Assembly (NCBI GenBank): GCA_918797485.1
Contig: CAKKNE010000004.1
Coordinates: 4,898,001 to 4,962,000, forward strand
From: Pelagomonas calceolata
Taxonomy: Eukaryota
Reading direction: 5' to 3'
DNA length: 64,000 nucleotides
The notes below the pieces were generated by a model, which made no database searches, was not told the origin of the DNA, and saw nothing but the letters and a program-made list of their open reading frames with translations. The first letter of the stretch is position 1; every line of letters begins with the position of its first letter. Positions 11,311-47,500 of the stretch are shown in pieces. The position numbers and the translations under genes were made by a program.

Positions 11311-14300
11311 CTACTTCGCCATCTGGTGCGCCACCAGAGCGTAGTAGTGCGCCTTCTTCGCCAGGAGCGCGTTGTGCGTGCCCTCCTCCAGGAGGCCACC
11401 CTTGCCGAAGACGCAGATCTTTGAAGCCGACCGGATCGTGCTGAGGCGGTGGGCTATCACCAGCGTCGTACATGAGGACGCGGCCACGAGCTCGTCGAGG
11501 GCGGCCTGCACTACTTTCTCAGAATTCGCGTCGAGCGCAGACGTGGCCTCGTCTAGTATCAACAAACGTGGTTTTCTCACAATTGCGCGGGCAATCGCGA
11601 TTCGTTGCTTCTGACCACCAGAGAGTTGTATACCGCGACTACCAACCTCGGTGTCAAAACCGTCCGGGAAGCCACTGATGAAGTCGTATGCATTCGCGAG
11701 CCGCGCCGCGCGCTCGCAGTCGCTTCGCGTTGCGCCCTCGCGACCGTACGCTATGTTTTCGAATATACTGCCAGTGAATAGCACAGGCTCCTGACTCACG
11801 AGCCCGATACTTGCGCGCAGAGCAGATACGTCCCAACTTCGCACATCGGTGCCATCCACAGAAATACGGCCGCCGTCGACGTCGTAGTAGCGCAGTATTA
11901 GTTGAACCGCCGTCGATTTACCGCTGCCGCTTTCCCCCACGAGCGCGCAAACTTCACCCGCTGCGATGGAAAATGTGAGCCTGTGTGGAAATCAACCAAT
12001 GAGTTAGGTTATCCTGAGCATAATTGCGAGAGACCATCGTCAACCTCCACGCCATCGAGCCAGCGCAGTCATGTGAACAACATCGCGTCGATGGCGTGGA
12101 ATCTCCACGCCATCGAGCAGACGCAGTCACAGGGACAATTGTCGCGTCGATGGCGGGGTACCATGAATTTGATTTCTACACGGACGTGAGCCGCTCATAG
12201 ACCGGGCGGTCGGCCCGCGTCGGGTAGGCGAAGGCGACGTCCTCAAAAGAAACCGTCGCCGCGGCGCCACCCTTGCCCCCGTCGTAACCGGACGGCGCGA
12301 GCGCGTCGATGGGCGATTTGAGGTGGACGATGTCCCACGCTTTCTTGGCTGCCGTCATGGCCTGTAGAAGCGACCGATGAGTCGCGGCGCCGTGGACTTC
12401 CAAACACCGAGCTACTAACCTCGGCCTTGTCGATGGAATCACCAGCCACCGCTCCGATTCCAAACGCCATGAATATAATTACGAGTAGGACCGTCATCAA
12501 GTCGGAAAAGGAGACCCAGCCCTTGCGGAAGAAAATACCGCCGACGTAGTACTGGAAGGCTGCGCCTAACAGAATGGTCGCCGCCTGTGTGCAACGGCGG
12601 TGAGAAAAGACTATCCTCACAAACTAGATCGACGACGCCGTGAAATTTGATTTGTGCACGGGTTGCTACCGCGACACCGGCGCCCAGGCCTCCCGCGAGG
12701 CCCTTTCGAATGGCCTGTCGTTCCGGCAACTCCAAAAAGTCGTCGAACTTTCGCGAGACGGCCGCCTCAATTCCGTAAGCTCGCACTGTTCTCATGTGTA
12801 AAACTGCTTCGGTCGCGATGCCACCGGCCCTGACCAACGACTCCTGGGCAGCTTCCGCGACTCGAGCCACATAAGAACCGGTCACCGCAATAGGTGCGAC
12901 AATAAGAGGGATTATACCCAGCGTGACGAGCGTCAGCCGCCACGACGCGTCGAACGAGATGCCGAGGCCTGTGCGGAAACCAGCCAGTGAGTTGGGTGCA
13001 TCGAGAAGGCGGCGCGTCGATGGCGCGAGAAGCTCCACTGCATTGATTTTATGCACTGACAGAGACCGCCCACAACGATAACGACCATTGCAACGGATAG
13101 GGCGATGCGTTGCCCGACGAGGGCGCGTACGGCTTGCGTGTCTTGGGCGAGTCGCGACGCTAGAGCTCCGGCGGCTCGCTCGGGCGCATCGTGCCCTGTG
13201 TGACAACCGCGTGACAAAAGGCTACTGATCCTCTCCGTCTGGCTTCGCGTTGATGGTGACCGCATCGGCGCGGCCGGGCTAAGTCAATACGAAGAGGGAA
13301 AATTGGACGCCGATTGCGCGCAGGAGATCGGCTGGCGGACCATGGCCTCAAAGGACTTGGTCCGAACATCCCTAACAACGTGCTCGGCTGCACGACTCAA
13401 GCCGTAGGACTTCCAGAGCTCGCCGATCGCGGCACATCCAGCCATCGCCACGAACATCAAGGCCCAGAACCGGGCCTCGCGGCGCATATGGCTCGTCGAG
13501 TGGTTGAAGAACGCCACGAGAAACTCAGCCATCAAAAAGCCCAGCAGCGGTTGCGTCGCGCCGCCGATGGCCGAGCCCACGACGCCCAAGGCGACGAAGG
13601 GCCGCTCGTCGCGCGCCGTCCGCCAGAGCCAGCTCACGACGCGAGATGCCGTCGCCTTGTCCACAGGCGCCGGCGCCTCGACGTCGTCGGCTTTCGTCGA
13701 CCCGGCGTCCGTGTCCGTGACGGCCTCGGCGAGGACGACGTCGTCCTCGGCCACGGGCGCGACGCTCGCGACGCTCGTGCCGCCGTCGTCGGACGACGAC
13801 ACCTGCGCCTCGACGAGCGCCTTGTACGCGCCGCCCTTGGCCATGAGCTCGTCATGCGTGCCGCGCTCGGCCACGGCGCCCTCGTTGAGGACACATATCT
13901 GGTCCGCGCGGCGGATCGTGCTGAGGCGGTGGGCTATCACAAGCGTCGTCCGCGCCTTCGAGGACGTGATGCTGTCGAGCGCCTCCTGGACGACGCGCTC
14001 GGACTTGGCGTCTAGGGCCGAGGTCGCCTCGTCGAGGACCAAGATTTCGGGGTCGCGAACCAACGCCCGCGCAATTGCGACGCGCTGGCGCTGGCCGCCG
14101 CTCAGCTTTACGCCGCAGTCGCCGACCTCGGTGTCAAAACCGTCCGGAAAGCCGCTGATGAAGTCGTAGGCGTTCGCGAGCCGCGCCGCACGCGCGCACT
14201 CGTCGCGCGTCGCGCCACTGCGGCCGAACGCGATGTTCTCAAAGATAGTTCCAGTGAATAGCACAGGCTCCTGCGCGACCAGCCCCATCTTCGACCGGAG

Positions 14301-15668
14301 CGTCGCGACGTCGAGCGTCCGCGCGTCGACGCCGTCGACGACCACGGCGCCGCCCGAGACCTCGTAGAAGCGCAGCAGCAGCTGCACGACCGTGGACTTG
14401 CCGCAGCCCGAGGGGCCCACGAGCGCGCACGTCGTCCCCGCCGGGATGTCGAGGCAGAGTCCCGCGCAGACGGGCCGGTCCGGCCGCGCCGGGTAGCTGA
14501 ACTGGACGTCGACGAACTCGATGGTCCCGGCGCCCCGCGTCGTCGAGACGGACGCCCGCCGCGCCGCGGCCTTCACGTTGGCGGCGTCGGTGATGGACGT
14601 GGCGTCGGCTTCGTCGATGATCTTGAAGACGCGCGTGGCCTCGGACCGGGCGAGCTGGTAGGCGGCGATGCCCGGGAGGGCCTGGAGCAGCGCCAAACCG
14701 CCGAACAACACGCAGAGGAAGGCCGTCATCACGTCGCCGCCCGAGATGCACTTGTTGTTCGGCTCGCGGAGGTCGCCGGAAGAATCGCGGCGGTAGTTGC
14801 AGTAGTCGTGGCGCTTCATGTCCTGGCGGATGAGGTAGCTCCCGTACCACAACCCGAGGGCCCAGGTGCCGTAGAGGATGCACGAGACGAGCGCCGCGTT
14901 CGCGCCCGTCGACACGGCGGCGCCGAGCGTCGCGTCCGCCGCGCGCGCGCACGCCGCCGCGTAGCGGTTCATCTCCCGGCGCTCGCCGCCGAACGCCGCC
15001 ACGGTCCGCACGTTGACGAGCGCCTCGTTCGCGACGGCCGACGCGGCCGCCGACGCGTCTGCCGCCTTGGCGTTCGCCCGGCTCGCGACCTTTGACGCGA
15101 GGCCCAGGAGCACGACCACGATGGGCAGCGCGCCGACCGACACCAACGCCAGCGACCAAGCGTAGTAGAGCGACACGGCCAGACCAAAGACGAAGGCGAA
15201 GACGCCCTGCAGCGCGGTGGTGAGCTTCTCGCCGAGCCCGTCTTGGATGGCGAGCGTGGATTCGAGCACCGACGCGCCGACGGCGCCCTGGTCGCTCTGG
15301 TCGAACCAGCTGATCGGTCGTGATAAGACGGCGGCAAAGTACTTCTCGCGGCAGCGCCGCGCTTGCGCCGCGGCGACGCGCGTCGCCAGCGCGGTCTGGA
15401 GCGTGATCGTGATGAGCTGTTGGATGCCCACGACGGCGTACATGAGCGCGAAGAAGTGGACGAGTTTTACAGCCTCGGCCGTGTCGGCCGTGTTGAAGCT
15501 GTCGAGGAGATTGCCGAAGATGATGAGCTGCGCCGGCTGGTTCAGGCCGCTGACCATCACCGTCACGAAGGCGGCGGCGTACATGGCGACGTCCTTGCAG
15601 GACGCGTAGCGGAGGATGTGCTGCGCGCGGCGCGGCGGCTTCTTTTTGTTCTCGGCGGGCTCCACCAT
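11311..15668 (-). CDS. Full-length ABC transporter, subfamily B (MDR/P-glycoprotein-like), ~1,259 aa, 5 introns
   Basis: Two TMD+NBD halves; Walker A GPSGCGKST and GESGSGKST, LSGGQ(R/K)QR signature, DEATSALD. Introns 13196-13321 (GC), 12969-13066, 12585-12669, 12362-12419, 11981-12191 (GC) leave 3,780 nt in frame from ATG 15668. Confidence 0.92.
11981..12191 (-). mobile_element. Introner element (TIR family) forming a GC-AG intron in the ABCB gene
   Basis: Element 11981-12183 has TIRs CTGTGTGGAAATCA / TGATTTCTACACGG; flanking 8-bp TSD atgtgagc (11973-11980) vs acgtgagc (12184-12191). Confidence 0.9.
12969..13066 (-). mobile_element. Degenerate TIR-family introner intron in the ABCB gene (a similar one is at 12585-12669)
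   Basis: Intron starts GTCTCTGT, resembling the next exon start GCCTCGGC, followed by CAGTGCATAAAATCA...TGGTTTCCGCACAG. Confidence 0.7.
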
Positions 15669-16089
15669 CGGTGCTTTACACATTTGTACGCAGGTGCAGC
15701 GTTTTCGCACTGTTCAGCAACTTGTAGATGAGGTGGCTGCTTGAGCTCTATTTGTTGATTTGCGCAATCGTTGGAATTGTAACGCAGCACCGGTTTTATC
15801 GATGCAAACGCGATCGATGTGAGCGTCCGGCAGCACCTTTTGTCCGGCACCACGCTGTTTACAAACTTGCGTGCGACAGAGCTGGCACTCTCCAGAGACA
15901 TACTAGGCCGACAGCAGCCCGGCAATTGGTCTGGGGACTTACTACGACTACTTGGAGAGGATACCAAGTAATTTGGAATGAGAGGCTACTAAAAAACGGC
16001 GGTCAAGCAGACCCCGCGTCGTCGGCGATCGACGGGGGCTGCAAGCTCGTAGGCGGCCTAGCTCTAAGCAAAGTATAAAAATGTATAAC

Positions 16090-17388: not shown

Positions 17389-17651
17389 CGTGCTGCCCCA
17401 GAGCTTCGACGCCTCGGAGGCTTGGCTGCCCCAGAGCTCGCGGGGCTCGGCTCGAGCGGAGGCTGGCAATTTTTGTTGTCGCGCACGGGTTTTGACAGAA
17501 GATGTGAATCTGATGTTTCCGTAGCTCTCAGAGAGTTGCAGAGATTGATCATTAAGCTGGTATAAGGCGATATCGATCGTTGCGGGTTTTCGGGTCATTT
17601 TGGGTCACTTTGTTAGCTCCACTTGCATTGGAGAACAGCCGCCGTGGCGCC

Positions 17652-22394: not shown

Positions 22395-23430
22395 TCAGCC
22401 GGACGACGGGCTCCGCAGGTCGAGCACGAAGATCGACTCGAGGCAGTCCTGGATGGCGAGGCGCGTGCGCTTGAAGTCGTCGATGTCGTCCATGTAGTGT
22501 CCGCTCTTCGAAAGACTGACAGTCACGTCCTCCGTCTTGATCCGGTTCGCGAGGCGCACGGCCGTCGTGTAGGGCACCTCCTCGTCCTCGAGGCCGTGCA
22601 GGAGTCTAACGGGGCACTGGACGTCTAGGCCGCCGTCGGGGCCCTTTAGCAGTAGGTGATCGCGCGCGTCCTCGATCAGCTTGCGCGAGATCGGATACGA
22701 ACAATCACCCCACTTGATGAGCTCCATGCCCTGTGCGGAAAGCGACCGGTGAGCCTCGATGGCCGGGCAGGCCTCGCGTCGATGGCGTGTTGATGTCTGC
22801 GCTGCTGCGTGCATCCATGATCCTCTCGATGACGTCGGGCTTGAGCCTCTTCAGGAGCAGGTCCTCCGTGAAGTCGGGGTCGGCCGCGAGACCAACGACG
22901 CCACCGACGAGCTCGGGATCTGTTTGAGCGAGCCGTACGGCTATCCACCCACCAACTCCGGCGCCGACGAGCACGACGCGGCGGTGGTCGTTCGGCGAGG
23001 CAACCGTTTCGATCAACTGCTTCGTATCGGCGAGCCACTTCGAGAGACAAGCCTCCTCGATGTTACCCTTCGAGCGTCCCACGCCGTGGTAATCGGCCAC
23101 GACGAAGCTATATTTGTTCTTGCGGCACCAGGTCCGCAAGGAAGAAGACATGGCGTTCACTTTCGGCAGAGCAAGAGACGGCAAAAACACGATAGCCGCG
23201 GGATCTCCGCCGGCTGGCGCGTGCTCCGCGTCAAAGACGATGTCCGACGTGCCATCCGTGCTCTTCAATATGAGATCTCGCCCAGAGGTCTCCCAATTTG
23301 TGCGGTCCACTGCGGAGACGACCGCCGAGCGGAGCGCCGTGGGACTGCTTACGCTGCGAGCCGGCGCCGCGCGAGGGGCCATGCGCTGTAGCGCGCCCGC
23401 AAACGCGGGAACGAGTGCTAGCACCCTCAT
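22395..23430 (-). CDS. Alpha/beta hydrolase, ABHD10-like, with an N-terminal signal; one GC-AG intron (22731-22812)
   Basis: [49 protein letters not shown]; splicing leaves 954 nt in frame. Confidence 0.8.
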
Positions 23431-23575: not shown

Positions 23576-25649
23576 CTACTTGCGCCCGCCGATGGCGTCC
23601 AGCGCCCGCGCGACGGAGGGGTGGGAGGCGTCTTCATAGAGCACGAGCCGCGGCTGGAGGTGTTGCCTCCCGCACGTCCGCACCGCCTCGTCCCACGTGA
23701 CGGCGGCCCGCATTTCCGGCGGCCCGTCGGACGCAGCGTTTGCATACTTGCTCTTGGACCCGCGGCTCGGCCGCGCGCCGCCGGACAGGTGCGGCAGGTC
23801 GTTGAAAAAGAGGAACGCGTCGCTCGTCTGCCGCTTGACGTAGGCTACGTAGTGCTGAAGCCGGTGGCAGTAGCAGACGAGCGCGTAGAGGGCGATGGGC
23901 GCGTCGGGCTGCGGTGTGAAGGCGCGTGCGAGCGCCTCGATCCGAGCCGCGTCGCGCGTCGGCGGCCAGGCGAGGTCGAGGGCGATGATGGACGCCCCGG
24001 CCCGAACGACCGGCGGCGGTGTCACCGTGGCGGCGCCCGTGGACCGTCCCCGCCGCGGCCGTGCCGGCGCACCGGGCCGCGGCGTCTCGGGCGCGGCGGC
24101 GAGCGGCGTCGCCAGGGCGTGCACCAATAATGCCTGGACCCGCGCCGTGTCGATGCCGTCGCCCCAGGGCACGGGCTGGATGCGGTACAAATCGGAGAGG
24201 CAGCGCGCTTGCGACGGGACATTCGGGTGGTCCAGCGCCCGCTGCACGGCCGAGAGCGCGTCGCTCGTGTCGCCGAAGCCGTGGCGGTCGCCCTCGGGCG
24301 CGAAGGCCTCGGCCAGCCGCGCCGGCGAGACGCTGTCCGCCTGGTCGAGGTCGGGCACCGTGTCCACCGAGGCCCCGATTCTAGCCTTCTTCGGCGGCGG
24401 CGGCGCGTGCGACGCGAGCGTCTGGCGGTACTCGCGCCACGTGTCCACGAGGGCCTCGATCTTCGGCGCGCCGGGCGTGTCCCATTCACTGGTCTCGAGC
24501 GCGCCCGCCTCCAGGGCCGCCTCGAAGCACGTGTGCCACGCACGCGAGTGCCACAATACTTGAAACGCGCACGAGAGCCAGCAGGACTTGGCGCGGGGGT
24601 TGGCGAAGGGCGCGTGCACGTAAGACCGCGACGGCTGGATGGAGCTGCCCGTCGGCGCCGCAGGGGTTTTTGGCACCGGGGGCACGCTCGGCGCCGGCGC
24701 CGGCGACGCCGCGATTTGCGCGCGCCGCGCGCGCGCCGCCAGCGCCTCCAAAAATAGGCCCGCGCGCGCAGCGTCGAAGCCGCAGCGCGGGCCCGAGAGC
24801 TCGCGCGCAACGGCCGCGCGGGCAGCGTCGTCGGCCGCGGCCTCGCAGCGCTGGAGCAGCGCCGCGGACACGCGCACGACGCCGGCCCGCGGCTGCTCGC
24901 CGTCCTGGTAGAGCTGGCGCCGCCCGTCGTCCGTCGCGTCGAGGCGGCAGAAGCCCGCCCGCGCGAGCTCCTCCTCGGTCCCGTCGGCGCGCTTGACGGC
25001 GACGACCTGTGTGGAAATCAGAATTTACGGCGCGTTCGCGTCGACCTCCACGCCATCGACGACGCACCCGCCACACTGGTTGATTTCCACACAGGCCACG
25101 ACGTGGACCCACCCTCCCCGCGGCGTCGCCGCGCCGCCCGGCGCCACCGCGCCGTCGCCCTCCCTTAAGTCCGTGAGGGGTGCGGATCTCAAATCCCGGC
25201 CCGACAGCACGGGCCACGCGCCGAAGCGCCCGCCGTAGACGAGGCGGTACGTCCGGCGCCCCGCGCGCTCCCGCTCGCGCGCCGCCTCGAGCGCCGCGTC
25301 ATCCTCTGCGGCTCGCCGCCGCGTGTCCTCGCCCACGGCGCCGATCCTGCCCCGGAGGCCGTTGATCCGCCGCGACTTGACGAACTGGACGACCGCCGCC
25401 TCCGTCGAGAAGTAGTCCCGGCCCTCGAGCGCGCCCTTGCGGAGCGACGTGTTCGCGCCCGGCCGGAAGTACGAGTAGGGGTGGAGGCCGGAGCCCTGCT
25501 TCCAGGTCCAGCCGACCTGCTTTAATCTCGCCCACATGATGTTGAAGGGCAGCTCGTGCCTGTGTGAGGTGCGCCTCGGGCGCGTCGCTTCGAAGACAGG
25601 GGACGCCGGAAACGCGCAACTCGACGAACTCGCCGCTCGGGCCCAGCAT
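23576..25649 (-). CDS. USP/peptidase C19-like cysteine protease with an N-terminal W..L...GW.W...Y.RPG...G.DYF domain; 2 introns (25560-25617 GC-AG, 25007-25102)
   Basis: Cys box PFANPRAKSCWLSCAFQVLWH; His box YALVCY...HYVAYVKR...FFND; splicing leaves 1,920 nt in frame from ATG 25649. Confidence 0.7.
25007..25102 (-). mobile_element. Introner element with perfect 14-bp TIRs and an 8-bp TSD, forming a GT-AG intron
   Basis: Element 25007-25094 CTGTGTGGAAATCA...TGATTTCCACACAG; flanks gcgacgac (24999-25006) and gccacgac (25095-25102). Confidence 0.92.
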
Positions 25650-32500: not shown

Positions 32501-35500
32501 TAATATTTTCGACGCGTTTCGACGCCAGAGAAGCCCGCTCGGCCTTGTCCATGCTGGACATAAACAGCCCCAAAAACTGAGCTAATGAGGTTTGATACAT
32601 GGGATTGACGGCGGACATCTCGACGATGGCAAAATACAAGCACGAGCCCCGCGTCGCCACTGGTCTAAATTGTTCCCTCTTCTCATTAATGCTGATCTTC
32701 GTCTCGTCGGCGGCCTTCAACTTCTCGCCGACCTCCTGGGCCTTCGCCTTCGTCGAGGCGAGGACATCCACTAATTCCTCGTCGTCTAGGAGGTTCCCCG
32801 TGTTACTCGTGAGTCTTTCGAGTAACGAAGCGTCCAGCGCCAAGAGACTCTTCGTGTTGGCGTTGACCTCCTGCAGCACTAAAGCTAGTTGCTCCTCCAA
32901 AGCGCGCTGCTCCTTGCCGATCACTTTCCCGAGGAGCTGCTCCTCGAGGCCCTTTTGCGTGACCTGTGTGCGAAACTGTCGCGAAACTGCCGCAGCTCTC
33001 TCACGCGAGGTGTAGACGCTCTGATCATCATGAAGACGCCCTCGTCCCAAAGTTCAAGTTGAGAAATGGATTTACATTTGACGCCGAGTCACGGACCGTG
33101 AAGTCGACGACCGTCGTCTTCGCCTGGAGCTCCGGCGAGAAGGTCGGGTTCGGCAGTCTCGTAATAAAATAGGCCATGAAGGCCATGTCGTAGTCCATCT
33201 GCTTGTCGGAGATCGTGATGATGTACCTGCGGGGCGTCGGCGGCTCGGGACGCCGTCGGCGCGACGCGAACGCGTCTTCCAGAGACTCAACATCGGACAA
33301 GGAGACGAGTCGTATCAATGAAGTAAGACGCCGCGAGCGCGCCGCCGGCCCTTTTGCACGTACTCCTTCTCCAAGACGGGGTCGAACATCGGGTCGATCT
33401 CGTTCTCGACGCCTAATACAATAAAGGCCTTGCCCTCCTGCATGGCGAACTCGAGCTTGTCCTTGATCTTCGGATCGAGGAGCTGGACCGTGGGCGACGC
33501 CGCCGGTAATCTTTCTTTCTCCCGACACGTGATCCAGCCGACGGCCTGGCCCTGGGGATCGATCAGCAGCGGGAACCGCGAACTTCGCGTCACGAGGATG
33601 CCGTTCTGGATCGACAGGGGGTCCGTCGGTAACCCTTCCTGGTTCCAGTCGCCGATCGTGCCGATGTCCGCGAGGAACTCAATAATATTCAGGTTTTGCG
33701 TCACGGGCACGTGCCGCGTCTCGCACTCGTTGCTGTACTTGTCGACGATGCAGTAGCTTCGGTACTCCTGGTTGAAGGGGCCGCAGTACGACACGAACGC
33801 GCACGCCACCGCGCAGTCGCCGACGAGCCTTAGTTTCTCCGACGCGAAGCCGTTCGCGTCCTCGGTCCAGCGCTTCTGCTCTCCACTGAGACCGCCGATC
33901 AAATCCGTGGCCTGCGTCATCTTCTTCATGAGCCTGCGCGGCGCGTCGCGTGTGGTCCGAACGGCCTCAAATTCGAAAAACAAACTACCCACGACCTCGT
34001 CTGATGGACACGAGTCGTATGAATGAAGTGAACACGTCAAGACGCCGCGACCCCACATGTTCGCGTTGTCCTCCAAAATCTTCTTCTCGCCCATCTGGCG
34101 CTCGAACATGGCCTGCGGGCGTGTCGCGTCGCGCGGCCGTCTTCATGAATCTCGACGGGGTCGTGGGGGTCGCTCTCCATCAGAGAAGGCGAAACGACGG
34201 ACGCCGGGGATCGTGCCTGCAATTCCCCCAACTTCGCGTTGACTTCGGCTAATTTCGCTTCGGCCTGCTTGAGCTTCTCGGCCGCCTCGTTTAACGACGC
34301 TTCAGCTAGTGCGAGAGCCTCTAGTTTCGGCTTGACAATACGACTAGCGTAGAAGTAGTCCTTCATCGCCGCCGCAAAAATACAAAGACCCTCCGCCGCC
34401 GACGACGCGGATTTAGCTACTTTAGGAGTGAAGTACTCGCCGCCCTCTTCGGTGCCGAGGTCGACGTACGGAAATAAAAACTCGACCGTCTCCTCGTTCA
34501 TCAGGTCTTTCCCTTCGGCCCCGAAGGCCTGGAGGTCCGTCAGGAAGTTGGCGCCGCCGAGCATGGCCTGGCCCGAGAATTTAAATGAGGTGCCAAAAAA
34601 GGGCAGGTCCTCTTTTTTGACGTAGAGCGTCTCGGGGACGACCTGCGCGGCGCGACGCCGTCGACGCGCGTCGTCGCCATCTCAGCATGCCGGGGGTGGT
34701 CTCTTCGTCGATTTCGGGCCGTGTCGAGGCGTGCCGCGGTCCCGAGGCTCTCTGACGGCCCCGTCGACGGCGTCGCGTGGGCGTGGCGTCGCGCCGACGC
34801 CATCTTCATGATATTGAAGTTCGGAAACGTTCCGAGAAAAACACCGAGTCGGCACCTTCTCGAGCGGGAGCTTAAATAAAATCAAAATGCAGTCGAAGAT
34901 CATCTTGATGATGTCCGTCGGGTTCTTGTTGGCTTTTATTTCTTGGATATCTTTCGGTTTGATGGACGCGATCGCTTTGTTGGCCTGCGCGGAGTTTTGG
35001 GGTCGTGGAGTGGTACGGGAGGATCGTGTCCGGGAATGGCGGCGGTGGGTCGTTTCTCGTTGAATTTTGAGGCGATTTCGAGGTGATTCGGTCGACGTTG
35101 CTCGACGCGGTCCGAACGGCCTCGATATCGAAAAAGAAACCACCCACGACCTCGTCTGATGGACACGAGTCGCATTGAAGTGAAGGCACCGTACGGGACG
35201 CCGCGAGCGCGCCTTGTCGACGAACGGCTGCGCCTTCGCCAAATCAATTTCCGCCAAGGCCTTCTCCTTGCCGATCCGCTCCGCATCCGCTTCGCAGGCC
35301 GCCTTGTCCTTGGCTACTTTATCTCCTTCGCGCTGCGCCTCCGCCGACGAGATCTGCAGCCCCTCGAGCATCTTATTCGTCTCCTCCGACGCGACGGCCA
35401 ATTTTTTATCTTCCTCCGCGAGCACGAGTTTCATGTCCTCCACGTCTTTACCGCCCTGCTCGAGCTTCTCGAGACCCAACAAAATGGACGCCTCCTTGTG

Positions 35501-38500
35501 CTCGATCTCCGCGAGCTTCGTCTTGTACCTGCATTGATACCGTCGCGACACGGCCACAGCTCTCTCAGAGCCACGTCGACGGCGTCGCGGTGGCGGCGCG
35601 TCGCGTGGACGCCATCTTCCCAAAGTTCAACTTGAAAAATTGATGAGCATCGGACGCTGAGTCACCGTACATGACCTGGTAGGCCGCGATGAAGCTGAGG
35701 TACGACTTCGGCGTCTGGTAGACCTGGCGCCGCATCTTCTCGAAGTACTCGAGGCAGACGTCCGTCGTGTGCGCGTGGCACATGCCTGCGTTTGATGGAC
35801 GCCGTCGCGACACGGCCTCTGGACATCCACGCGACGCGGAGGCTCTCGCGTGGCCACGTCGACGGCGTCACGGTGCCGTGAGACGTCTTCACGAAAACTT
35901 CAAGTTGAGAAATTGAAGGAAACTTCAACGCCGCGTCCGCGCCCATCGTCGTCATGACGTTGTTTTTGATGTCGTCGTCGCAGGCCATCTCGAACTTGCC
36001 CAGGAAGCCCTTCGAGACGGCGACGAGCGCCTCTTCGGGCCACGGCAGGAACCAGTCGATCGTCGGCGCGGACACGAGGCCCGGGAACCGTCTCGCCCTC
36101 TCGGGGAATTTCGGGTTCAAGGGCGACATGCAGAGCATGAGGTGCAAGTTGTCCCTTGTTACATCAGTTAAATACGCCTTGAGGTTGTCCTGCGTCTCTT
36201 CGACGCCCGGCCGATTTTTGATGAAGGACGGCCGCAATTCCGCCTGTGTTGATACAAACAATCACGAAACTCGTCGAGAAGCGAGGCACGTCTCCATGAA
36301 GATGGCGTGGAGCGCGTGACGACGCTCTCGGACGCCATCGACGCGACCACGTCAAGTTCAAGTTCATTTTCTGCTCTGAGTCACTGACCGTCATGGCCAT
36401 GATCTCGTCCTTCGCAAACAAGCCGGGCACCTCGCCCGTCATGAGCACACTATTCAACGTCTCGAGGAACGACTCGGCCTTGATCTCCGACTCGGTGAAG
36501 AGGAACGTGGTCCCTTTGCCGGCGCCGGCGTTTCTGTATAGAGTGCGGATGTCCTCCAGCAGCGAGGCCTGGTTGTACGTCTTCGTGAGCGTGATCTGGA
36601 AGCACATGAATCGACTGATGTAACTGGAGAGTCGTGTTAACGACTGTTTACCACTACCACCCACACCTACAAGAAGTCCAGAGCCGCGCGGCATCTCCAT
36701 CAATCTGTTGATCTTCAGCATGTGCTTCAACGCGTCGTCGAAGAGCACCAGGTCCATTTTTTTGGACGGGTTTTCCTCGTTGTACTTGTCGAGGAACATG
36801 TCGACCCTAGATTTGATCTCTTTCAGGGTTCCTCCCGGCTCATACACTTTAGGAGCCTCCTCCTGCATGACGCCGTCCTCGTCGTAGATGTCGTCTCTCA
36901 AAAAGTTGACCATCAGTAGTTCACTGTCAGAAGGAATACCGGCCACGACGGCCTCGTCAAACACTTCCGTGATGGTCTCTTGGATCGCGCCCGTGCAGAC
37001 GTCCTTGTCTTTATAGTTCGTGAGCTTGTCGTTGAAGACGCGCTCGCACCTGCGCGGAACGACCTCGTCTGATGGCCACGAGACACTTCAAAACGCCGCG
37101 AGCGCACTCGTGCTTCCAGACGTTGACGAGCGTCGAGGGTGGTGCGACGGTGTACGTGCCCTCCTGGCCGCGCGTGCCGCCCGTGTTGATCGAGTCGTGC
37201 GGGACAGCTAAAACGCCCTGGAAGACGCGCGACAGGTCGCGCATGTTGAAGACGTAGTGGAACCTGCGCGGCGCGTCGCGGTTCGTATCTCGGCGTGCGA
37301 CGGTCGACGCGCGTCGTGTCCACCTCATGATGAAGTGGGTGCATTCGGACGCGACGCGGTCCGAACGGCCTCTTCAGCAAAAAAGAAACGACCCACAACA
37401 TGATACGGGACGCCGCAACGGACTTCGCCGGCGTCGGCAGCATCTTGTTCTGCATGAAGGTCCACAACTTGATCGTGGCCTTCGTTAGCGCGTTCACCAC
37501 TAGCTTGAGATCCGTCTCCGTCTGGCGCGCGGGAAAGCGCCCGGCGAGCATCTGGCCGTAGATGTCGTTGATGCTGTTGATGGACGGCGGCGTCAGGTTG
37601 ATCGTGTAGAACTGCCGCTTCAAGCGATTCGGAATGTCATTCCTCCCCCCACCGGGGTGGCCCATGGCCCCGATGTAGTAGACGTCCTCGCAGGTCTTGA
37701 AGTCGCCCCTCTTATCCTTGTCGAGGAAGCAAAAACCCGAATATTCGACCAATTGGCGCATCAATTCGAGCGTCGGCTGGTCCGTCCACTTGTTGACCTG
37801 TGTGTGATACGTGTCGAGGCGCCTCCACGCCATCGACGCGCGTCGTCTCTAGGAATGATGGAAGTGGGTAGTTTCTTTGTCGAATTTGAGTGCATTCGGA
37901 CCGCGTCGAGTATATCGAGTCGCGATCTCGCTCAATATCGAAAAAGAGACCACTCACGGCCTCGTCTGATGGACACGAGTCTGATGAACTACATGACGGG
38001 ACGCCGCGAGCGCACCTCCGGCATCGACATGTCGTCGATGAAAAACGTCATCTTGTTGCCGTTCGGCGGGCCGAAGTTCTTGCCGCCCCTTTTGTCGAGC
38101 TCGGCCTCGACGGCGTTCTGCGCGCCGAACCTGCGCGGCGCATGTCCGTCAAAGCGGTCCGAATTCACTCATGGCCACGCGTCGAAGGCACCACTTCAAA
38201 ACGCCGAGGTCGCACATCGTCGTCGCGAACGAGTAGTTGACCGTCCTCGTGAGCATGTCCAGCGACTGCAGGAACATCCTTACCGTTGCTGTTTTTGCGG
38301 TACCGGCAGAACCAATAAGTAGAGCGGCCTTCTTCTGCTTGTGGGCCTGTTTAATTAAGTACTGCGTCCGCTCCGCGTCGACCGTCGGCACCAAGATACT
38401 CGCAAAGTCCAGCGTGTCGCCGTCGGGGTACTTCCAGACCGGCGCGCTCCACTCGACCCAGTCGCAGCTCTCGTGGTCGAGCTTAAACTCGAAAACATTT

Positions 38501-41500
38501 CCAGAGGGCATGTGCGTCTTGTCTACTGAAGACATCCACTCGTTGAGCTTGTCGCGGTCGTCGGCCTCGAGTAACGCGCCAAAGGACCACGTGAAGGCCA
38601 GGATGAAAATCTTCTCCAAGTTGACGGCGAGGTCTCCCTGATCAATTTTGATGGCCGTTTGCACCGGTGCCCCGGCTTCTAACGTAAAGCCGTCAATTAA
38701 GGTCAGCATGGCCTGGAGAATCGCCATCCGACCCGTCGCGAGCTTCGGGGACGTCTGCCTTTGTAAAAAGGAAAAGGCCGGGCCCGGCTCGATGGGGTCT
38801 GTGTGGAACGACACCGTCGCGAAACTGCCGGCAGTCACGGTGGCGGAACGTCGCATTGGCGCCGTCTTCCCAAAGTTCAAGTTGAGAAATTCGAAGAAAA
38901 TGACGCCGAGTCACTGACCGCACTTGCCGAGCCACTTCTCCTTGAGTTGTGTAAGAATGTCGCGTTGATCCTCCGGCCTCGTCTGCACCCACGCCGTGAA
39001 CAGCGCCTCCCAGTCCAATTCCACTTCAGACAAGTAAATGATGCCCGCGCGAGAGACCGTCGCCGGCGACGCGTTTTTGAGCGTCTCGACCTCGAACATC
39101 ATCTTGACCTGCGCGTGGCGGCGGTTTCGCGCGTTGCGAGGGGTTCGCGGCGCTCTCACTTCCTCAATACGACGCGTCTCCATCGCAGGAGGCCAGGCGT
39201 GGTCTCAGTTTCGATTCTGGGGCCGTTCTCTGGCGTCGCGTCGACGGCGTGAAGGCACCGCAGGACGCCGCGTGTCACGTTGTCCGTCATGGGCATGCGG
39301 TCGCCGTTCGCCAGCGTGAGGATTTTATTGTCGTCCAAGACCGTGTTCAGGTCCTCGATCCAGATCGCGTCGACGGGCCCGTCGGCCGTGATCCACGTGT
39401 TGTAGGGGTTGTCGCGGTTGCAGGCCTTGGCCCACATGGCCGCGAAGACGCCCGTCGTCCACTCCTGGCTGACGGGGTCGACCTCGCCGTACATCTGCTG
39501 CGCGCGGATCGCCTTCGGGTTGAATCGACACGCTCGGTGCTGCAGGTCCATGATCTTGTGTAATACTCTCCTCAACAAGTAGAAAATGGTCGACTTGCCG
39601 CCTCCGGTGGGCCCGACGAGCATGATGCCGTGGCGGACCTGTGTGTGACATGTGTCGAGTCGCGACCTCGCCCGAAACCACTCTCATGGACGTGAGATGG
39701 ACACCAGTCGCGTCGATTGCGTATGAGCCCGACGCCATCGCCGCGACCCGTGAAGATTGCTCTCTGCCTCTCTCGGGAGTCCGAGGCGACCGCGTGGTCC
39801 GAAACGCCTCAAAATCGAAAATGAGACCAGCCACGGCCTCCTCTCCTGGAGACGACGCGTTTGAATGAAGTGAAGGCGCCTCTACACTTCAAAACGCGGA
39901 GACCGCACCTTCGTCGTCTCGTAGAGCTGGATGACCTTGCCGACCCAGCCGCCGCGCGTGCCCTCGGACCCCTCGGGCCCCTCATAAAAGATCTTGCCGT
40001 CCTTCTCGCATTCCTCCATCAACGCTTGTTCCATGTCGGGGTATTCGGCCTTCGGCGGGGCGCTCATGGAAGGGAACAAGTCGGCCAAGATCGATAGGAA
40101 CAGGGGCACGTCCTGGGCCACGAGCTTCGACAGGTTCATGTCCCGCAGCGTCTGGTACACTAAGTAAGATTCGGGCTTGTCCATGTTGTTTCTCTTGGAG
40201 GCGCCCATCGTCCGCAAAACACTGAGGATGTTCCGCAGGCCCCAGTCGTAGTGCTTTTGATTTGATAACTGTAATTTACACGTGTCATAAAGGACAAAAA
40301 ATTTGAAGGACAGCATCTCGTACTGCGAGTAGCCTGCGCGGGATCATACTCGCGTTGACGCCATCTTCCCAAAGTTGAAGTTGACGCCGAGTCAGCACCG
40401 ACACTACACAATTTCACCTTCTTGATAATTTGAAAATTCGGCACCATCATCATGACGCCGCGGAAGAGGGCCTTGAGGTTCTCGGGCAGCGCTTGGCGGC
40501 CCGCGTAGCCCGGGTTCATCGTGATGAAGTAGCCGACGGCCTTGTTGAGGCGCACCTGTGCGTGGCGGCGGTGTCGCGCGTTGCCGCGGTGTTCGGGCGC
40601 TCTCGCTTCATTGATACGACTCGTGGCCATCAGAGGAGCCGGAGTCACGACGTCGGTCCGAAGGCGCCTCCACACGACGGGACGCCGGCGCGCACGTCCT
40701 GCGGGTCGCCGGGGAACTGGAAGAAGGCCTTGTCCGCCTTCTTGGCGTTCTGGATGCTCAAAACTTGTTGCGCCACCACTGACAAAACGGGTAAGCGAAT
40801 CCGGTTGAACTCGTCGAAGCAGCCCCAGATGCCGCTCTGACACAAGCCTTTAAAGATCTTGGCGCAGTCCTTGTAGGACATCTGGTCGCCGCAGTTCGTG
40901 ACGACCACGAAGATGCCTAAAGATGCGCCCAGATCCTTCGTCGTTTCCGTCTTGCCCGTGCCGGCCGGCCCGGCCGGCGCGCCGCCAAACGACATGCCCA
41001 GGGCCTGGGCCAACGTGATGTAGCACCGATCCGTGAGCGGCGTCACAACTAGTCGCTCCTTCGACCCTAGATACTCGTAGGAGTAGGCGAAGTCCTGCGC
41101 GGGGCGTCGTATTCACTGGAAGCGGTCCGAATGGCCTCAAAATCTCTCAAAAAACTACCCCCGGCATCGTGCGATGGCCACGAGTCACATCAACAAAGTG
41201 AAGGCACCTCCACACGACGGGACGCCGCGAGCGCACGAAGTTCGTGATCGCGATGACGACGCTCCCGTCCGGCGAACAATCATCCGAAGCTTGGGGCCGC
41301 CAGTAGAATCTAGCTTGTTTGGTCCACTCGAAGTCGTTCGCGTCGTGGATGAGCTTCTTCTTGTAGAGCTGGAACATCTCCGTCGTGACCTGTGTGGCAC
41401 GGACACCGTCACGAAACTGCCGCGGGAGGCGCGTAGACGCTCGTGCGGCCACGTCGACGGCGTCATGTTGACGCCATCTTCACAAAGTTCAAGTTGAGAA

Positions 41501-44500
41501 ATTGAAGGAAACCACGCTGAGTCAGACGTCCTTTTGGTGCACGTGGATCGTAACTAAAGTTTCGATCTTCTTGCGGTTGACCTTCGTGCCCAGGTCCTGC
41601 AGGCACCACGACGACAGCTCCAGCAACAAGTTATTTTGGCGCGCGTTACACTCCTTCATGCCCGACTTCTTTCTTTTGCACTCCTCGAGCGCCGTCTGCG
41701 TGTCGGCCGTCCACATGAACTGGATGCCCAACAGAGCGATTTGCGCTTTGCTGTCGTCGACGAAGCGTCTTAACCCAGGAATGTCGACGCCCGTGGCCGC
41801 GCAGTACTCGCCCGCGGTCGCGCATAAACTTTTTACTGTTAACTGCATGTAATGTAATAAGGTCGTGAGCCAGTCCTCGATGTTGCCCGACGCCGGCACG
41901 GGCTTGATGAAGGGGAACTCCTCGTGGCCGACGCCGCCGGAGCCGTGGATCGTGCGGATGATGGCCTGCGCGGAGCATCGCGGTTCGGTCCGAATTCACT
42001 CAAAATCACAAAATAAACCACCCACGTCATCGTGCGATGGACACGAGTCGTATCAGTGAAGTGAAGGCGCCTCTACACGACGGGACGCCGCGAGCAGACC
42101 TTGTCCTTTTTGTCGTGGTCGACCTTCTCCAAGGCGTCGAAGACGGTCTCGTAGTGGGCGTTCATCGTCGTCGGGTCGCTGCCCTGCGACAGGATCTGGA
42201 GCAGCTTCGAGTTGGAGCAGAAGTAGAACCGCGGGAACTTGCTCCGTTTTTGCTCGAGGTAGCCCTCGAGGGCCTTGGAGCACTTTTCTAGTTCGCCGTA
42301 CATCTCGGGCAGCTTCGCCTTGAGCATCTCGTTCTGGCAGCAGGGGACGACGAGCGACGTCGACTGCGACACTTGCCTGCGCGGAGCATCACGATTGGCC
42401 TCAAATCCGAAAAAGAGACCACCCACACCATGCTACGAGTCCCAGCGACAACGTGAAGGCACCGTAGAAGACGCCGAGTCCGCGCATGATCTTCGTCCAG
42501 TCCTTGTCCACTTTACTAAATTTTTTGGCCTCCATCGGGAGCCTGTGTGGACATCAAAGTTCAACTTGGGCTTCAAGTCGGGGTCTCTCTCCCTTGAAGT
42601 GAGGTGCTGCTCGCTCCAGTCGGTCGAGTGTGTCTCTCGGAGATCGTGTCCGAGTTTGGGCCTCTCCGAGGACCGCGGCGCCGAGATCGCGAGACGCGAA
42701 TAATTTCCACACAGTGGCAGGCTGCTTGGCGATGTCGCCGCCCGTGAAGACCGATTCGAGGGAGCACCACATGAGCTGGACCTTGACCCACTGCTCGAGC
42801 GTGTCCGCGGCGTCGTTCAAATTAGCTAACAGCTCCGCGGCCTCCTCGCGGAACGGCGCGACGTGGCGCATGGTGAGGAAGGTCTGCATCTGCATGATGC
42901 TTTCTTCCAGTTCTTCGGTCAGGATGCCCGTGCCTTGTAAAGTAGGTATAGGTCTAGATTTCCAGTCCTGCGTGGGAACGACGCCGTCACGTCTCACGAG
43001 GCGCGTGGGCGCCCTGGTGATCATGAAGACCACGTCAAGTTCAAGTTCAATGAAGACGCTGAGTCAGTACCTTGAACGTGAACTCGCGGACCTCCCAGAT
43101 GCCGTTAATTTCCTTTATATCTTGTTCTATTTTTAATTGTTTATCGGCGCCGTCCGTGATCTCCAGCACCTCATCCGCCACGTTCTCCAATTTGAGGGAA
43201 ATGATGAATTCTAATGTAAAATCCGCGCTCTCCTGGTCGAAGTCGTTCTTGACCAAAGCTCGGAGCTCGTCCCAGTGCCGCACCATCACGCTGGGTTTGG
43301 CGAGTTCCTGGAGCAAGGGCAGCACGATCTGGAAGTCCTCGATGCGCTTATTTAAATTTTTATACGCGTCAAAAGCTCTAAGTCGACCGGGCATCTTCTT
43401 GCACCGCAAGGCAAAGTTGTCCATCGCCGCCGTCATGTCCTCCATGCCCGCGACGATGGCGGCAAATTGCAGCAGGTTCCACTCGTTCATGTTCTCCTTG
43501 ACGTCCGTGTAGAGCGAAAACCTGTGCGTGATATATCGCGTCCCGTCGTGGGGAGGCGCCTCCACGCCATCGAGGCGACTCGTGTCCATCTCACAGTGAA
43601 GTGGGTGGTCTCTTTTTCGATTTTGAGGCCGTTCGGACCGCGTCGATATATCGAGTCGCGACCTCGTCTTCCAGAGACTCAAATTCGACAAAGAGACCAC
43701 TCACGGCATCGTGAGATCGTATCAATGAAGTGAAGGCGCCTCTACACGTCAAAACGCCGAGATCAGACAGCTGGTCGAACAGCTTTATGTCCTTTTCCGT
43801 CTGCGCGAGCTCCGGGTATTCGCTAAATGGCAAAGCGAAGAGCTCCTCGCCGTTGTGGGCCATCTCGTACTTGCGCACGCACTGGGCCAGGTGGTCCTTG
43901 GCGAAGCGCAACCGATCGAGCGCCACCTCCGGGTCGACGCCCGGGACGCCCGGCCCCGCGTTGATCCAGTTGTCCCTGAGTTTGTCGACCTCCTTCCTTA
44001 GGACATTCTTGCTGACTTTCAGGTTCTTCTTCTGGACGTGCTGCTTGTTGCTCATCTCCTCGGCCCTGTGTGGGATCATGCAATCACGAAACTGCCGCGG
44101 CTCGCTCACGAGACCCGTAGACTCTCTCACGGCCCCGTCGAGGGCGTCGCGGCGGTGCGGCATCGCGTCGACGCCATTTTCACAAAGTTGAAGTTCGGAA
44201 AAGGCTGGAAACAGACGCTGAGTCAGCACCTTACGGAAGCGGTCGCGACCATCTTCCGCCAGCCGCTCTCGAGCACCGTCCGCTTGTCGACTTCCGACTT
44301 GTCCATGAAGCCGGACGGTAAATTGCGCTCGAGCATGGCGTACATCTCCTCGATGGGCCGCATCTCCATGCTGATGCCTGCGTGTGACACGTATCGAGTC
44401 AAATTCGACGAAGAAAGCACCCACGTCATCGTGAGGAAGTGAAGGCACCGCCACACGTCAAGACGCCGCGAGCGGACCCGACTCGCGCTCGCGGATCGTC

Positions 44501-47500
44501 TTGAAGAGCGCCATCATGACCCCCAAGGCGTCGAGGTCGTCGTCGGCGACGACCTTCTCGAGCTTCACGGACGTCGCCCTTATGTACTCGGACAGGTCGT
44601 CGAGCTTCTCGCGCGCCTCCTTGTGCCTGCGAGGAACGACGCTCTCCGAGCCCCATCGAAGTTGAAGTTCAACACTGAGTCACGCAGGTTGTTGCAGTAC
44701 GTCTTCTGCCAGACCTCGACGTCCGCTTTCAATTGCCCTTTGAGTTGGGTGGTATTGAGAGATAACGCCCCGATGTTGTGGCACGTCGCGATCTGCCCGA
44801 TGTCGTCGTCGGTGCCCTGGAAACTCTTGAGTTGGGAAGCGTAGTCCTCGAGCGACGGATTTGTAGAGAGAAACTCCTTGTAGGCCTCCTGCTTGTCCTT
44901 CTGCCAGAGCCAGTCGAACTGGCCAAAACTATGTAAGTAATCTGCTACCGTGTTCCGAATGCCTTGCAAACTACCGGTGAGTAGCAATGCCACGCGCACG
45001 ATTTCGATGTCCTTCGTTATTCTCTCAAAGAAGCTGGGGGCGTCCGCGGTTCTATATTTCTCCAAAGCGACAATCCTCCAATCTTTCACGCGCTTGAAAC
45101 ACCCTAAAACGGCTTGCGCCGACCGGTTGATGCAATTTTGCACATCATCAAGAGACGGCGACAAGACGCATTCCTCTGAACCGAGACGAACCCCGATCTC
45201 GAAGAAGGGTCTCGCCGTGTAGAGAAAACCAGAAGCGACCCGACAGGCGATCCTCTTCTTCAGCGCGTTCAGCGAGTTCTTCGCGCTATGCAATAACGCC
45301 TGGTACATGAAGTGGTTGTAGTGCTTCTTGAGCTTGGCGACCTCGTCCGGTTCTACATGCGAACCGGGCTGCTCGAAGCGGTAGGCCATGATGACCTGCG
45401 CGGAGCATCGCGGTGATGTGGCGTCGCGTCGACGGCGTCCCGAGGACCACGGAGACTCTCGTGGGATCACGACGACGGTCTCATGAAGGCGCTGTCTCGT
45501 GAAGACGCCATCGACGCGTGACACGCCGCGACGGCCCCGACGCGGTCCGAAACAGCTCAAACTCGAAAAAGAAACGACCCCCGGCATCGTGCGATGGCCA
45601 TGAGTCGCGTCGATGGCGTAAGAAGGCAAAAGGACGCCGAGATCGGACCTGGACCAAATCGTCGACGGCCGCCTCGATCTCGAGGTTCTTTCCTGTTAAA
45701 ACATCCACTTCCACCTCGATGTGGTCGTGCTGGTTGTGCACAAAGTCGTCGACCGTGAACGACTGGTCGTCGGGCAGGTCCACCAACCGCGTGCGCGAGA
45801 CGACCTTCAAATTGTTCTCGATGCGGTGCTCGATCACATCATTGATGCCCGTCACGAGCTGCTCCAGGCGCTTCAAACCGTGGTGCACGTGCGCTTTGTA
45901 GCTATCAATGTTCATCGACGTCCAGGTCAGCGTCACCATGCCCGGCCGGAGCTCGGCCTCCATGTCGTTGAAGTGCGGCCGCAGGACCATGGCCGTGACC
46001 GGAATCACCATGCTCACGACGCGATCATATTCATTTAAAGCCCAGTGCAGGTCGTTGTAGTAGGACTTCAATTTGTCCTCTTGAAATAGAATTATTTTGG
46101 CCGACTCGGGCACCTCGACGCCCATGCGATCCAGGCACTTCGCCTCCCTCACCAACTGCAACAGCTCCAAATCAAAGTTCACGTACAATTTTTGATCTTC
46201 CGGATGTCTTATGATCAGAGTAGCTTGTAAACCCGATTTGGCTTGATCTATACTAGAAACCCAGGCCTGGTGCCAGAGGTACTCGAAGGCGACCAGCGTA
46301 CGAGCCAATTTGTTGTACATCTTGATGATGCGCCGCGCCCCCGGTCCATCCAAGACATTTTGATTTAATTCAAATTGCCGCATCGGGCCCTCGATCCTTT
46401 TTAACAGGTGTCGGCTCCACGTGATGTTCCCGGCCACCGGGGGTAGATTGCGGGGAATGGGCGGGTCGTGCTTCTGCTTCTCGTAGAGCTGTTGCACCTG
46501 CTCGAGCTCGATGCCTGTGCGGAGCATTTCCGTCAAAGTCCGAACGGCCCCAAAGTCGAAAAAGAAACGACCCCCGGCATCGTGAGATGGACACGAGTCC
46601 ATCCAAGGATGTGAAGGCACCGCAACGCCTCAAAACGCGGAGATACGCACCATAGTTCTGGAAAATGACGTTGAGCTTGCTGTCGAGGTCCGACTTCAGC
46701 GTTTCTCTTTGCAGTATTGCTTGGAACGTCGCCAGCAGCCCCAGACTGTTTTCGATGGACGTGATGTTCTCGAAGGACTGGTTGATGAAGTGCTGGAGGG
46801 CGCCTTCGAGGTCCGAGATCTTGACCTGCGCGGCGCATCGCGGTCGCTCGACTCGGTCCGTAGACTCTCGTGCGGTCGCGTCGGCGGCGTCGCGGTGGCG
46901 TGACGTCGCGCTGACGCCATCGCGGCGGCGCTGTCGCGTGAAGACGCCATCGACGCGACCGCCGTCTCTCTGACACGCCGCGGTCGCTCGACACGGTCCG
47001 AACGGCCCCAAACTCGAAAAAGAGACCACCCACGTCCATCATTCCTGGAGACGATTCGTATTGAAGTGAAGGCACCGACGCGGGACGCCGGGATCTTCAC
47101 ATTAAATTCGACGTAGTCCCTATCAAATTTGTTGTTGTGGTAGTCCAGCAGATCGTGGCCCTTGCCCCGGAACTCCTTCACGATCCGGTGGAAGCGCGCG
47201 ATGAGCTGCTCCATGCCCTCCAATTTATTGACACTGAGCGACTTGAACTGATCAATGGTCGAAAACATGTCTATCAATTTAATGACGCGCCGGCAGAACA
47301 AGTCGAACTTCCCGAAGATGTGCATCTCGTTGAAGTCGAACTGCTTGCCCTTGGGCATCTGCTGGAGCTTCTTTTTCGTGAGTCGGTACTGGTCCTGGTA
47401 CGCCTCCGAGAGTTTTAAACAGGCTTCTAAGCGCCGCACGAGGTCTTGTTCATTGGACTCCCAGAGCGTTTCTGCACGACTAGCGTCGGAGTGGCAGACT

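Follow-up and report, generated by a model that had tools for sequence, protein, structure and literature searches.

Introns probably made by introners in a Pelagomonas calceolata locus, and a nearly identical dynein allele without them

How new introns arise and become fixed is a long-standing question, to which introners are the accepted main answer. Such elements were reportedly described in Aureococcus anophagefferens by Huff, Zilberman and Roy in 2016. As far as the sources available to us describe them, Aureococcus introners carry one splice site and recruit the other from an 8-nt duplication (10.1101/2020.10.14.339549, PMC9860276). For Pelagomonas calceolata itself, 956 putative introner elements have been reported (Guerin et al. 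2022, PMC9481584), and the accessible part of a later catalogue (Gozashti et al. 2025, PMC12130899) contains 11 introner families. One of these, fam2 (340 copies, hAT, 13-nt TIR), co-opts its donor and carries its acceptor ('co-opt 5' carry 3''), five families have 2-nt duplications and two are 'direct insertion' families. Micromonas introners are found at lineage-specific sites in wild populations with intron-bearing and intron-free orthologues, as here, and an effect on recombination has been proposed for them (Simmons et al. 2015, PMC4540971). However, Micromonas is a green alga with unrelated sequences, in which, according to the available text of PMC11282704, a 3-nt duplication supplies the acceptor, whereas at the present locus a single gene has 35 introns in one version and 0 in another, the two proteins being 98% identical. 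In Polarella and Symbiodinium, the accessible account (10.1101/2020.10.14.339549) describes introner-like elements that fall, within a single genome, into several classes whose duplications differ in length, and a conserved G at the start of the downstream exon as a relic of the duplication, both as here; GA donors are common there, but none occurs here.

The stretch of P. calceolata DNA that we analysed, 64 kb in all and hereafter called the window, contains 57 introns with GT/GC-AG ends (42 GT-AG and 15 GC-AG, 56-275 nt), all on the minus strand and spread over five genes: 35 in a dynein heavy chain gene, 14 in a cNMP/EF-hand repeat gene, five in an ABC transporter gene, one in a hydrolase gene and two in an unnamed gene (Table 1). 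Donors were placed by reading combined with a homologue check, as the codon-score parser alone returned 39 introns that were partly wrong. An earlier sequence-only reading had also counted 57 introns in five genes, which agrees with our set, but the span that it gave (11981-47100) holds only 43 of them, the 14 EF-hand introns lying at 46-6286. It must also be stressed that 57 overstates the number of independent insertions. Twelve of the 14 EF-hand introns lie in one and the same Trp codon of a duplicated 112-aa repeat, filled in 12 of 16 units, and they are therefore not independent insertions.

Table 1. Genes and introns in the 64-kb window (positions are those of the window).
Feature	Position	Strand	Remarks
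ABCB-type transporter gene	11311..15668	-	1259 aa, 5 introns; open frame
ABC transporter introns not assigned to a family	13196-13321, 12362-12419	-	in ABCB-type gene
cNMP-binding/EF-hand repeat gene introns (14)	46..6286	-	gene start 8699; gene runs off window
58-nt intron not assigned to a family	25560..25617	-	5' leader motif as in others; 100% identical in L003
Axonemal dynein heavy chain gene	29516..48648	-	36 exons, 4619 aa, hosts 35 introns
Family C, intact	25007..25102	-	14/14 terminal inverted repeat; 7/8 target duplication gives GT donor
Family C	11981..12191	-	12/14 inverted repeat; 7/8 duplication; GC donor
Family C ends in dynein gene	42543..42722	-	12/14; duplication 4/8; GC donor
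C-type, decayed	12969..13066	-	duplication 5/8; right end 12/14, left 7/14; assigned by eye
C-type, decayed	12585..12669	-	duplication 5/8; right end 9/14, left 10/14; assigned by eye
Possible decayed C-type, alpha/beta hydrolase gene	22731..22812	-	duplication 1/8; weakest C assignment
Family A copies 1-5	30581-30745, 31051-31215, 31490-31613, 32964-33096, 34643-34855	-	clustering and alignment
Family A copies 6-10	35529-35670, 35786-35942, 36244-36388, 38799-38918, 40334-40398	-	clustering and alignment
Family A copies 11-14	41390-41527, 42968-43070, 44066-44229, 44627-44685	-	clustering and alignment; last (short) by motif alone
Family A, total	30581..44685	-	14 copies
Family B copies 1-5	32093-32224, 33227-33342, 33934-34056, 34113-34216 (weak), 34985-35212	-	clustering
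Family B copies 6-10	37050-37107, 37264-37423, 37798-38015, 38131-38215 (weak), 39109-39278	-	clustering
Family B copies 11-15	39639-39908, 40556-40695, 41095-41236, 41966-42099, 42377-42485	-	clustering
Family B copies 16-20	43522-43768, 44378-44477, 45396-45648, 46515-46650, 46826-47100	-	clustering
Family B, total	32093..47100	-	20 copies

The junctions are predicted ones, and splicing at them would restore exactly the frame of intron-free orthologues. Excision of the 35 dynein introns gives an open 4619-aa frame that is co-linear with homologues and with the intron-free orthologues L003 and L005-L007; 31 of these junctions are crossed by homologues and the remaining four by L003/L005. Pelagophyte-like homologues likewise align without gaps across the junctions of the ABC transporter. 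With regard to relatedness, 43 of the 57 introns paired with another intron of the window at a score exceeding the maximum from 1500 shuffles, and dynein-to-dynein pairs made up 193 of the 208 links within the window. A 9-nt subterminal motif was found 18 times in introns and twice in exons.

Six C-type copies were picked by eye from their ends. The terminal repeats and duplications noticed in the earlier reading proved correct for 25007-25102 and 11981-12191, but the duplication at 42543-42722 is less complete than it implied. At positions 3-8 of the intron, where the match to the next exon is a measure of the duplication, the six copies agree at 20 of 36 positions against 10.0 expected. Inverted-repeat pairing has fallen to 7-8/14 in three decayed copies. 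L003 has an empty site at 25007-25102, and intron 42543-42722 is missing from both L003 and L005. On these data, family C conforms to the Aureococcus model, with paired repeats of which the right one ends in AG and an 8-nt duplication giving the GY donor; the two are alike in combining a carried with a recruited splice site, and family C follows the same plan as fam2, as far as the latter is described, with GT/GC-AG ends and terminal inverted repeats common to both. A non-autonomous element would thus insert by hAT-like cut-and-paste, making an 8-nt target duplication; its right inverted repeat would serve as acceptor and the first duplication copy, beginning GT or GC, as donor, so that splicing would restore the mRNA exactly. 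The end structure is observed, and we infer the transposition. Several waves of insertion are plausible, judging from intact versus decayed C ends and from median pairwise identities of 0.71 in family A and 0.65 in family B.

The search for an autonomous transposase with C ends, as the earlier reading had proposed, yielded neither a transposase nor an autonomous element in the window, in L003-L007 or in 120 of about 220 viral loci matching the C 14-mer. Two of these 120 loci had a facing near-match, without a duplication, and the one of the two that was inspected holds phage-like genes. A 1289-aa frame at 58365-62234, considered as a transposase, had no Pfam hit, from which we conclude that there is no transposase nearby. 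The A pattern in two viral and five prokaryote loci and an 18-nt subterminal motif in five viral loci were dismissed as chance matches, since no alignment extended past the motif. The combination of a C end and the subterminal motif was found 0 times outside the alga, the viral and prokaryote collections contained no dynein relatives, and an Rfam search gave 0 hits.

Families A and B are almost confined, in this window, to the dynein gene. The two family A motifs pointed out previously are borne out, with 9 and 11 occurrences, all intronic and none in 28 kb of exon; those of family B occur as described but are exact in only 4-5 copies each. The bodies of both families are patchworks of common modules, some of them fold-back and some A/B chimeras: copy 34643-34855 consists of A plus an inverted B module, and copies 45396-45648 and 46826-47100 of B plus A modules. 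A long internal fold-back is present in only three B copies (43522, 37798 and 34985), the first of which folds end to end (z=-7.0), and A copy 30581-30745 shows no unusual folding (z=-0.5). Unlike Aureococcus introners as described in the available sources, the 34 A/B copies have no paired terminal repeats (own-end pairing 0-8/14) and no 8-nt duplication in aggregate, the match at positions 3-8 being 55/204 against 55.1 expected. The earlier claim that donors are made from an 8-nt target duplication is supported for family C but not, in aggregate, for A and B. Nor could we confirm that the first 8 nt of an intron often copy the start of the next exon, as had been stated: over all 57 introns, position 2 alone exceeds chance (27 versus 18.7, p=0.003), and positions 3-8 give 97 matches against 89 expected (p=0.14). 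The 34 A/B copies nevertheless retain some residual signal, their summed prefix match being 67 versus 54 (p=0.0025). No duplication on the upstream side, with the exon end copied at the intron end, was found.

What A and B do match of their target amounts to about two bases. Downstream exons that start with G begin GY in 29 of 33 cases (background 44.5%, p=3e-7), and a GC exon follows a GC donor in 5/6 cases versus a GT donor in 8/28 (p=0.02). The 5' leaders, on the other hand, are common to copies at unrelated sites: five B copies at five different targets have positions 3-14 in common, and a copy found only in orthologue L004 has the same first 12 bases as window copy 41527. We consider it likely that these introns, which are of spliceosomal type and present in this lineage, were made by introners, with C hAT-like and A/B derived. 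From the target, the A/B elements would draw no more than about two bases (GY), followed by the family leader; their ancestors may have been inverted-repeat elements whose left terminus was lost, and copy-to-copy recombination or conversion may keep reshaping the bodies of the copies. We infer a transposon origin for A and B, and slightly prefer that new copies land with the leader attached over its later acquisition. This plan is also that of the P. calceolata 2-nt-duplication and direct-insertion families, as far as these are described.

A quite conceivable alternative, which we nevertheless do not favour, is that A and B inserted like C with an 8-nt duplication, of which position 3 onwards and the left repeat were later overwritten through selection for splicing and ectopic conversion from other copies. 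The two readings differ solely in what happened to the 5' ends of A and B. A common leader core begins at intron position 10-13 in 42 of the 57 introns, just beyond the 8-nt slot; four of the 34 A/B copies, including 47100 and 32224, match at least six of eight positions (6-7/8; 1.1 expected, p=0.007), favouring an eroded long duplication for some; and orthologous intron 24 has the same GC in the window and L004, with different bases following. In four decayed C-type copies, moreover, left ends score 7-12/14 and right ends 9-14/14. However, the aggregate signal at positions 3-8 is zero whichever of three target-site versions is used, although the bodies are still 65-71% alike, and lineage-specific copies match at only 1-3/8.

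The comparison of orthologues for intron presence and absence, which had been suggested as a check, showed that close relatives lack these introns wholly or in part. The syntenic orthologue L003 has 98.2% amino-acid identity and 0/35 dynein introns, and three further orthologues (L005-L007), at about 89% identity, have no introns in the gene, or in as much of it as is covered. L004 (98.7%) differs from the window at four sites: three of the five window introns in its span are present (intron 25 is identical at 95/105 positions), two are absent, and it has two family-A introns of its own; beyond the 14 window copies of family A, four more are found in L004. Since L003 and L005-L007 lack all 35 introns and L004 has a different set, the dynein introns are lineage-specific and repeated. 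L003 is genomic sequence, as it retains another intron, that of 58 nt. P0160, which crosses three junctions, fits both alleles almost equally, with 15 mismatches to the intron-free L003 and 12 to the window.

These alleles could also be explained if the common ancestor of L003, L004 and the window already had the introns and all 35 then disappeared from L003 by recombination with cDNA, which we regard as unlikely. The window and L004 do have three clearly related introns in common, the tree of the three alleles is close to a star (support 49), and GC3 is slightly raised in L003 beside the window's junctions (p=0.02). Yet L005 shows a similar GC3 rise (p=0.04), with no excess of codons shared by window and L003 near junctions; the young C copy at 25102 is also absent from L003, which keeps the neighbouring 58-nt intron; a 14-kb conversion would be required; and relative to L005 there would still be a gain.

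Somewhat less probable again is an RNA route without any transposase, in which RNA copies of A and B would have reverse-spliced into proto-splice sites and then been reverse-transcribed. Consistent with this route, every leader is in sense orientation, preceding exons end AG in 11/35 (background 6.8%, p=1e-5) just as following exons begin GY, the left inverted repeat is absent and copies are clustered within one transcript. But the second donor base tracks the target base, which is unexpected from precise reverse splicing, inverted and fold-back modules and the motif in common with C point to DNA-level events, and splice-site bias can arise by selection after insertion. That the likeness reflects splice signals and local duplication only, with no mobile elements, is partly true of the 12 introns in the EF-hand gene's repeated codon, and 14 of the 57 introns have no significant partner, but for A, B and C this reading is contradicted by 80-120 nt modules common to non-homologous sites, by allelic presence/absence and by intact inverted repeats with duplications, and is hardly credible.

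Introner families of both patterns have thus already been published for the P. calceolata lineage, and the locus adds no new principle. A search of 14 supplement files for three motifs gave no matches, no sequences of the published families were found in the supplements searched, and the likeness to named families is one of plan only. The additions of interest are the nearly identical dynein allele free of these introns and the mosaic structure of A/B copies, as neither allelic presence/absence nor mosaic copies are described in the available parts of PMC12130899 and PMC9481584. There is a hint of the nucleosome-scale spacing described for Aureococcus in the accessible text, in that exon lengths tend to fall close to multiples of 144 nt (R=0.43, p=0.054); the CG-linker profile at insertion sites is flat, with no clear CG peak. 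A more speculative view, which we think doubtful as a whole, is that A and B represent a second generation of one-ended introners that captured their own donor, lost the left terminal repeat and are copied between nearby sites in one gene without transposase. One dynein allele would thereby have acquired its load of 35 introns, an allele free of them would survive in the same species complex, and the load itself would block recombination across the gene, where synonymous sites are 52% different as against 3-38% in the neighbouring genes.

Because in most copies a target duplication has been lost or was never made, mechanisms assigned from a few examples mislead. The locus offers a natural experiment, in which one gene has 35, zero or different introns with near-identical proteins in ocean populations. 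Together with existing genomes and metagenomes, it can be used to test what rules govern insertion sites, how 5' ends turn over once a copy is in place, and whether intron polymorphism affects recombination as has been proposed.

Gene models built from coordinates placed 57 introns in five genes of the window, all on the minus strand (see the table below), which is exactly the number claimed in the sequence-only reading, but 14 of them fall outside the range 11981..47100 to which that reading had assigned them. The reading frames of all intron-bearing genes are open once the introns are removed. The splice ends are GT-AG in 42 introns and GC-AG in 15 (GC-AG introns have been put at about 14% by Sibbald et al., 10.1101/2024.10.30.620910), and G is the first base of the downstream exon in 55 of the 57. 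Homologues among 240 proteins covered 31 of the 35 dynein junctions, mostly without gaps; at junction 33 the distant homologues are gapped (20 of 101 gapless), whereas the two closest are not. Window composition is eukaryotic, with a GC content of mostly 56–70%, and the P. calceolata genome is described as having six chromosomes, a size of 32 Mb and 63% GC (PMC9481584; 10.1101/2024.10.30.620910). The dynein exons share 83–85% identity with proteins labelled as coming from Aureococcus and other pelagophytes, and the protein clusters of two single-exon window proteins are frequent in ocean metagenomes.

Intron-bearing genes of the window and their intron numbers
Gene	Coordinates	Strand	Introns
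Dynein heavy chain gene	48648 to 29516	-	35
cNMP/EF-hand repeat gene		-	14
ABCB transporter gene		-	5
Hydrolase gene		-	1
Unnamed gene		-	2

The repeated introns are real introners, of a kind already known and from a lineage whose introners are already catalogued. Guerin et al. (PMC9481584 and preprint) list 956 putative introners in P. calceolata with GT/GC donors and inverted repeats, and Gozashti 2025 (PMC12130899) distinguishes 11 families, among them some that co-opt the donor, some that duplicate 2 nt and some that insert directly, with one 340-copy family labelled hAT; Pelagomonas metagenome bins are listed in Gozashti 2022 (PMC9860276), and further context is given by Roy et al. (10.1101/2020.10.14.339549) and a review (PMC11282704).

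A metagenome scan of 173 candidates provided five loci orthologous to the dynein region, L003 to L007. L003 encodes a dynein of 4618 aa in a single frame with zero introns, 98.2% identical to that of the window. The locus is genomic, since it is syntenic with the window on both sides of dynein and retains the 58-nt intron 25560–25617 unchanged; it nevertheless has an empty site at the family C copy 25007–25102. No introns were seen over the part covered by L005–L007 (about 89%; near-identical to one another), and although metagenome contigs can be chimeric, the intron-free state is agreed by four independent contigs. L004, identical to the window dynein at 464 of 470 aa, has introns 22, 24 and 25 in common with the window and is without 23 and 26. 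It carries two family A introns of its own, which closely resemble copies located elsewhere in the window (85/91 and 48/49 bases). The branching order of the window, L003 and L004 is weakly supported (49). We found no report of intron-free versus intron-rich alleles in Pelagomonas, although subscription papers, figures and bioRxiv supplements may cover them; presence/absence polymorphism of introners is described in Micromonas (Simmons 2015, PMC4540971). Separately, about 860 nt of intergenic DNA (28290–29150), with no Rfam match, is absent from L003, although L005, which is more distant, aligns to it at about 71%.

Divergence between the window and L003 at fourfold-degenerate sites is 52% for dynein (1784 sites) and 22% for the polymerase delta subunit; two exons of the unnamed gene stand at 30% and 3%, and values along the TPR gene range over 6–38%. 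Stretches flanking dynein reach 95–100% identity, and the neighbouring genes are patchily diverged. Because the 52% difference stands alongside an orthologous intron 25 that is about 90% identical between the window and L004, two explanations offer themselves: the shared gene pool contains old dynein haplotypes, or synonymous sites in dynein change rapidly. Close to junctions synonymous identity is raised, which does not single out L003 and comes mainly from a rise in window GC3 there (about 0.91 up to six codons from an intron, against 0.80 at matched random positions, 29516–47100). Over the same interval there is a hint that internal exon lengths favour multiples of about 144 nt (p=0.054).

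When intron cores were aligned locally, 43 of the 57 introns were linked to another window intron with scores above the maximum of 1500 shuffles, and 193 of the 208 links lie within the dynein gene. Alignments gave 14 copies of family A and 20 of family B, three copies being weakly assigned, with median pairwise identities of 0.71 and 0.65, respectively. These copies are patchworks of modules: a fold-back structure occurs in three B copies, three copies combine A and B modules, and copy 43522–43768 folds end to end (z=-7.0). A six-base leader core, in the stretch following the GY (GT or GC) donor, begins at position 10–13 in 42 of the 57 introns; among controls the rate is 61 of 219 for interior windows and 14% for exon windows. 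In orthologous intron 24, leader and modules differ between the window and L004.

The sequence-only reading had derived the splice donors from an 8-nt target-site duplication. Comparing matched with random pairs, as in Gozashti 2022 (PMC9860276), this was borne out for family C, in which six introns, selected by eye on the basis of their ends, agree at 20 of 36 bases over positions 3–8 (10.0 expected), but it fails as a general rule: no excess was found at these positions in the 34 other dynein introns (55/204 versus 55.1) or in all 51 non-C introns (77/306 versus 79.9), and the result was the same when the sequence before insertion was taken from L003 or from L005. The signal left over is short: GY starts 29 of the 33 G-starting downstream exons in dynein (background 44.5%); the exon begins with GC after 5 of 6 GC donors and 8 of 28 GT donors, and 11 of 35 upstream exons end in AG. 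The A/B leader may have been carried in with the element or may have overwritten the 5' end later, and 36 copies fit either. Later overwriting accords with 4 of 34 A/B introns that retain 6–7 of 8 matches (p=0.007) and with a raised summed prefix match (p=0.0025). However, five B copies at five different targets have positions 3–14 in common, and one L004-only copy has the same first 12 bases as the family A window copy 41390–41527, at a target not starting with GY, as expected for a leader carried in.

End structure, the C duplication, empty sites, shared leaders and mosaic bodies were all seen directly. Target duplications of 8 nt are a mark of hAT elements, and family C would have been moved by a hAT-like transposase; none was found in the window, the orthologous loci or 120 viral loci with the C 14-mer. 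Families A and B probably descended from C-like elements, as suggested by a 9-nt subterminal motif (18 occurrences in introns, 2 in exons) and by right ends resembling the C end. Their left terminus would have been lost, and exchange from copy to copy probably reshapes them.

The EF-hand gene introns are mostly products of internal duplication. In 12 of 16 repeat units an intron lies in the same Trp codon (phase 1 in four, phase 2 in eight), and two further introns are common to another repeated site; the remaining four units are without the intron present in the other twelve. The protein (1–8699, minus strand) is longer than 2499 aa; its cyclic-nucleotide-binding domains precede a tandem series of at least 16 EF-hand units, each of 112 aa. 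P0279, at 87% to the ABC gene, is continuous over the first three ABC junctions, and its similarity ends at about residue 941, where, depending on how the P0279 gene was called, there may be an intron at a site without one in the window. Elsewhere, we noted by eye an intergenic tandem array of about four units of 35–40 nt (9330–9480) and a long plus-strand frame of about 80% GC (53535–57905) with Arg/Ala/Glu-rich, coiled-coil-like repeats. A 1289-codon open frame (58365–62234, minus strand) has no Pfam match; after it, near 58100–58260, comes a stretch of about 70 nt that is directly repeated.

The contrast between alleles and the mosaic, one-ended families A and B merit genome-wide follow-up.
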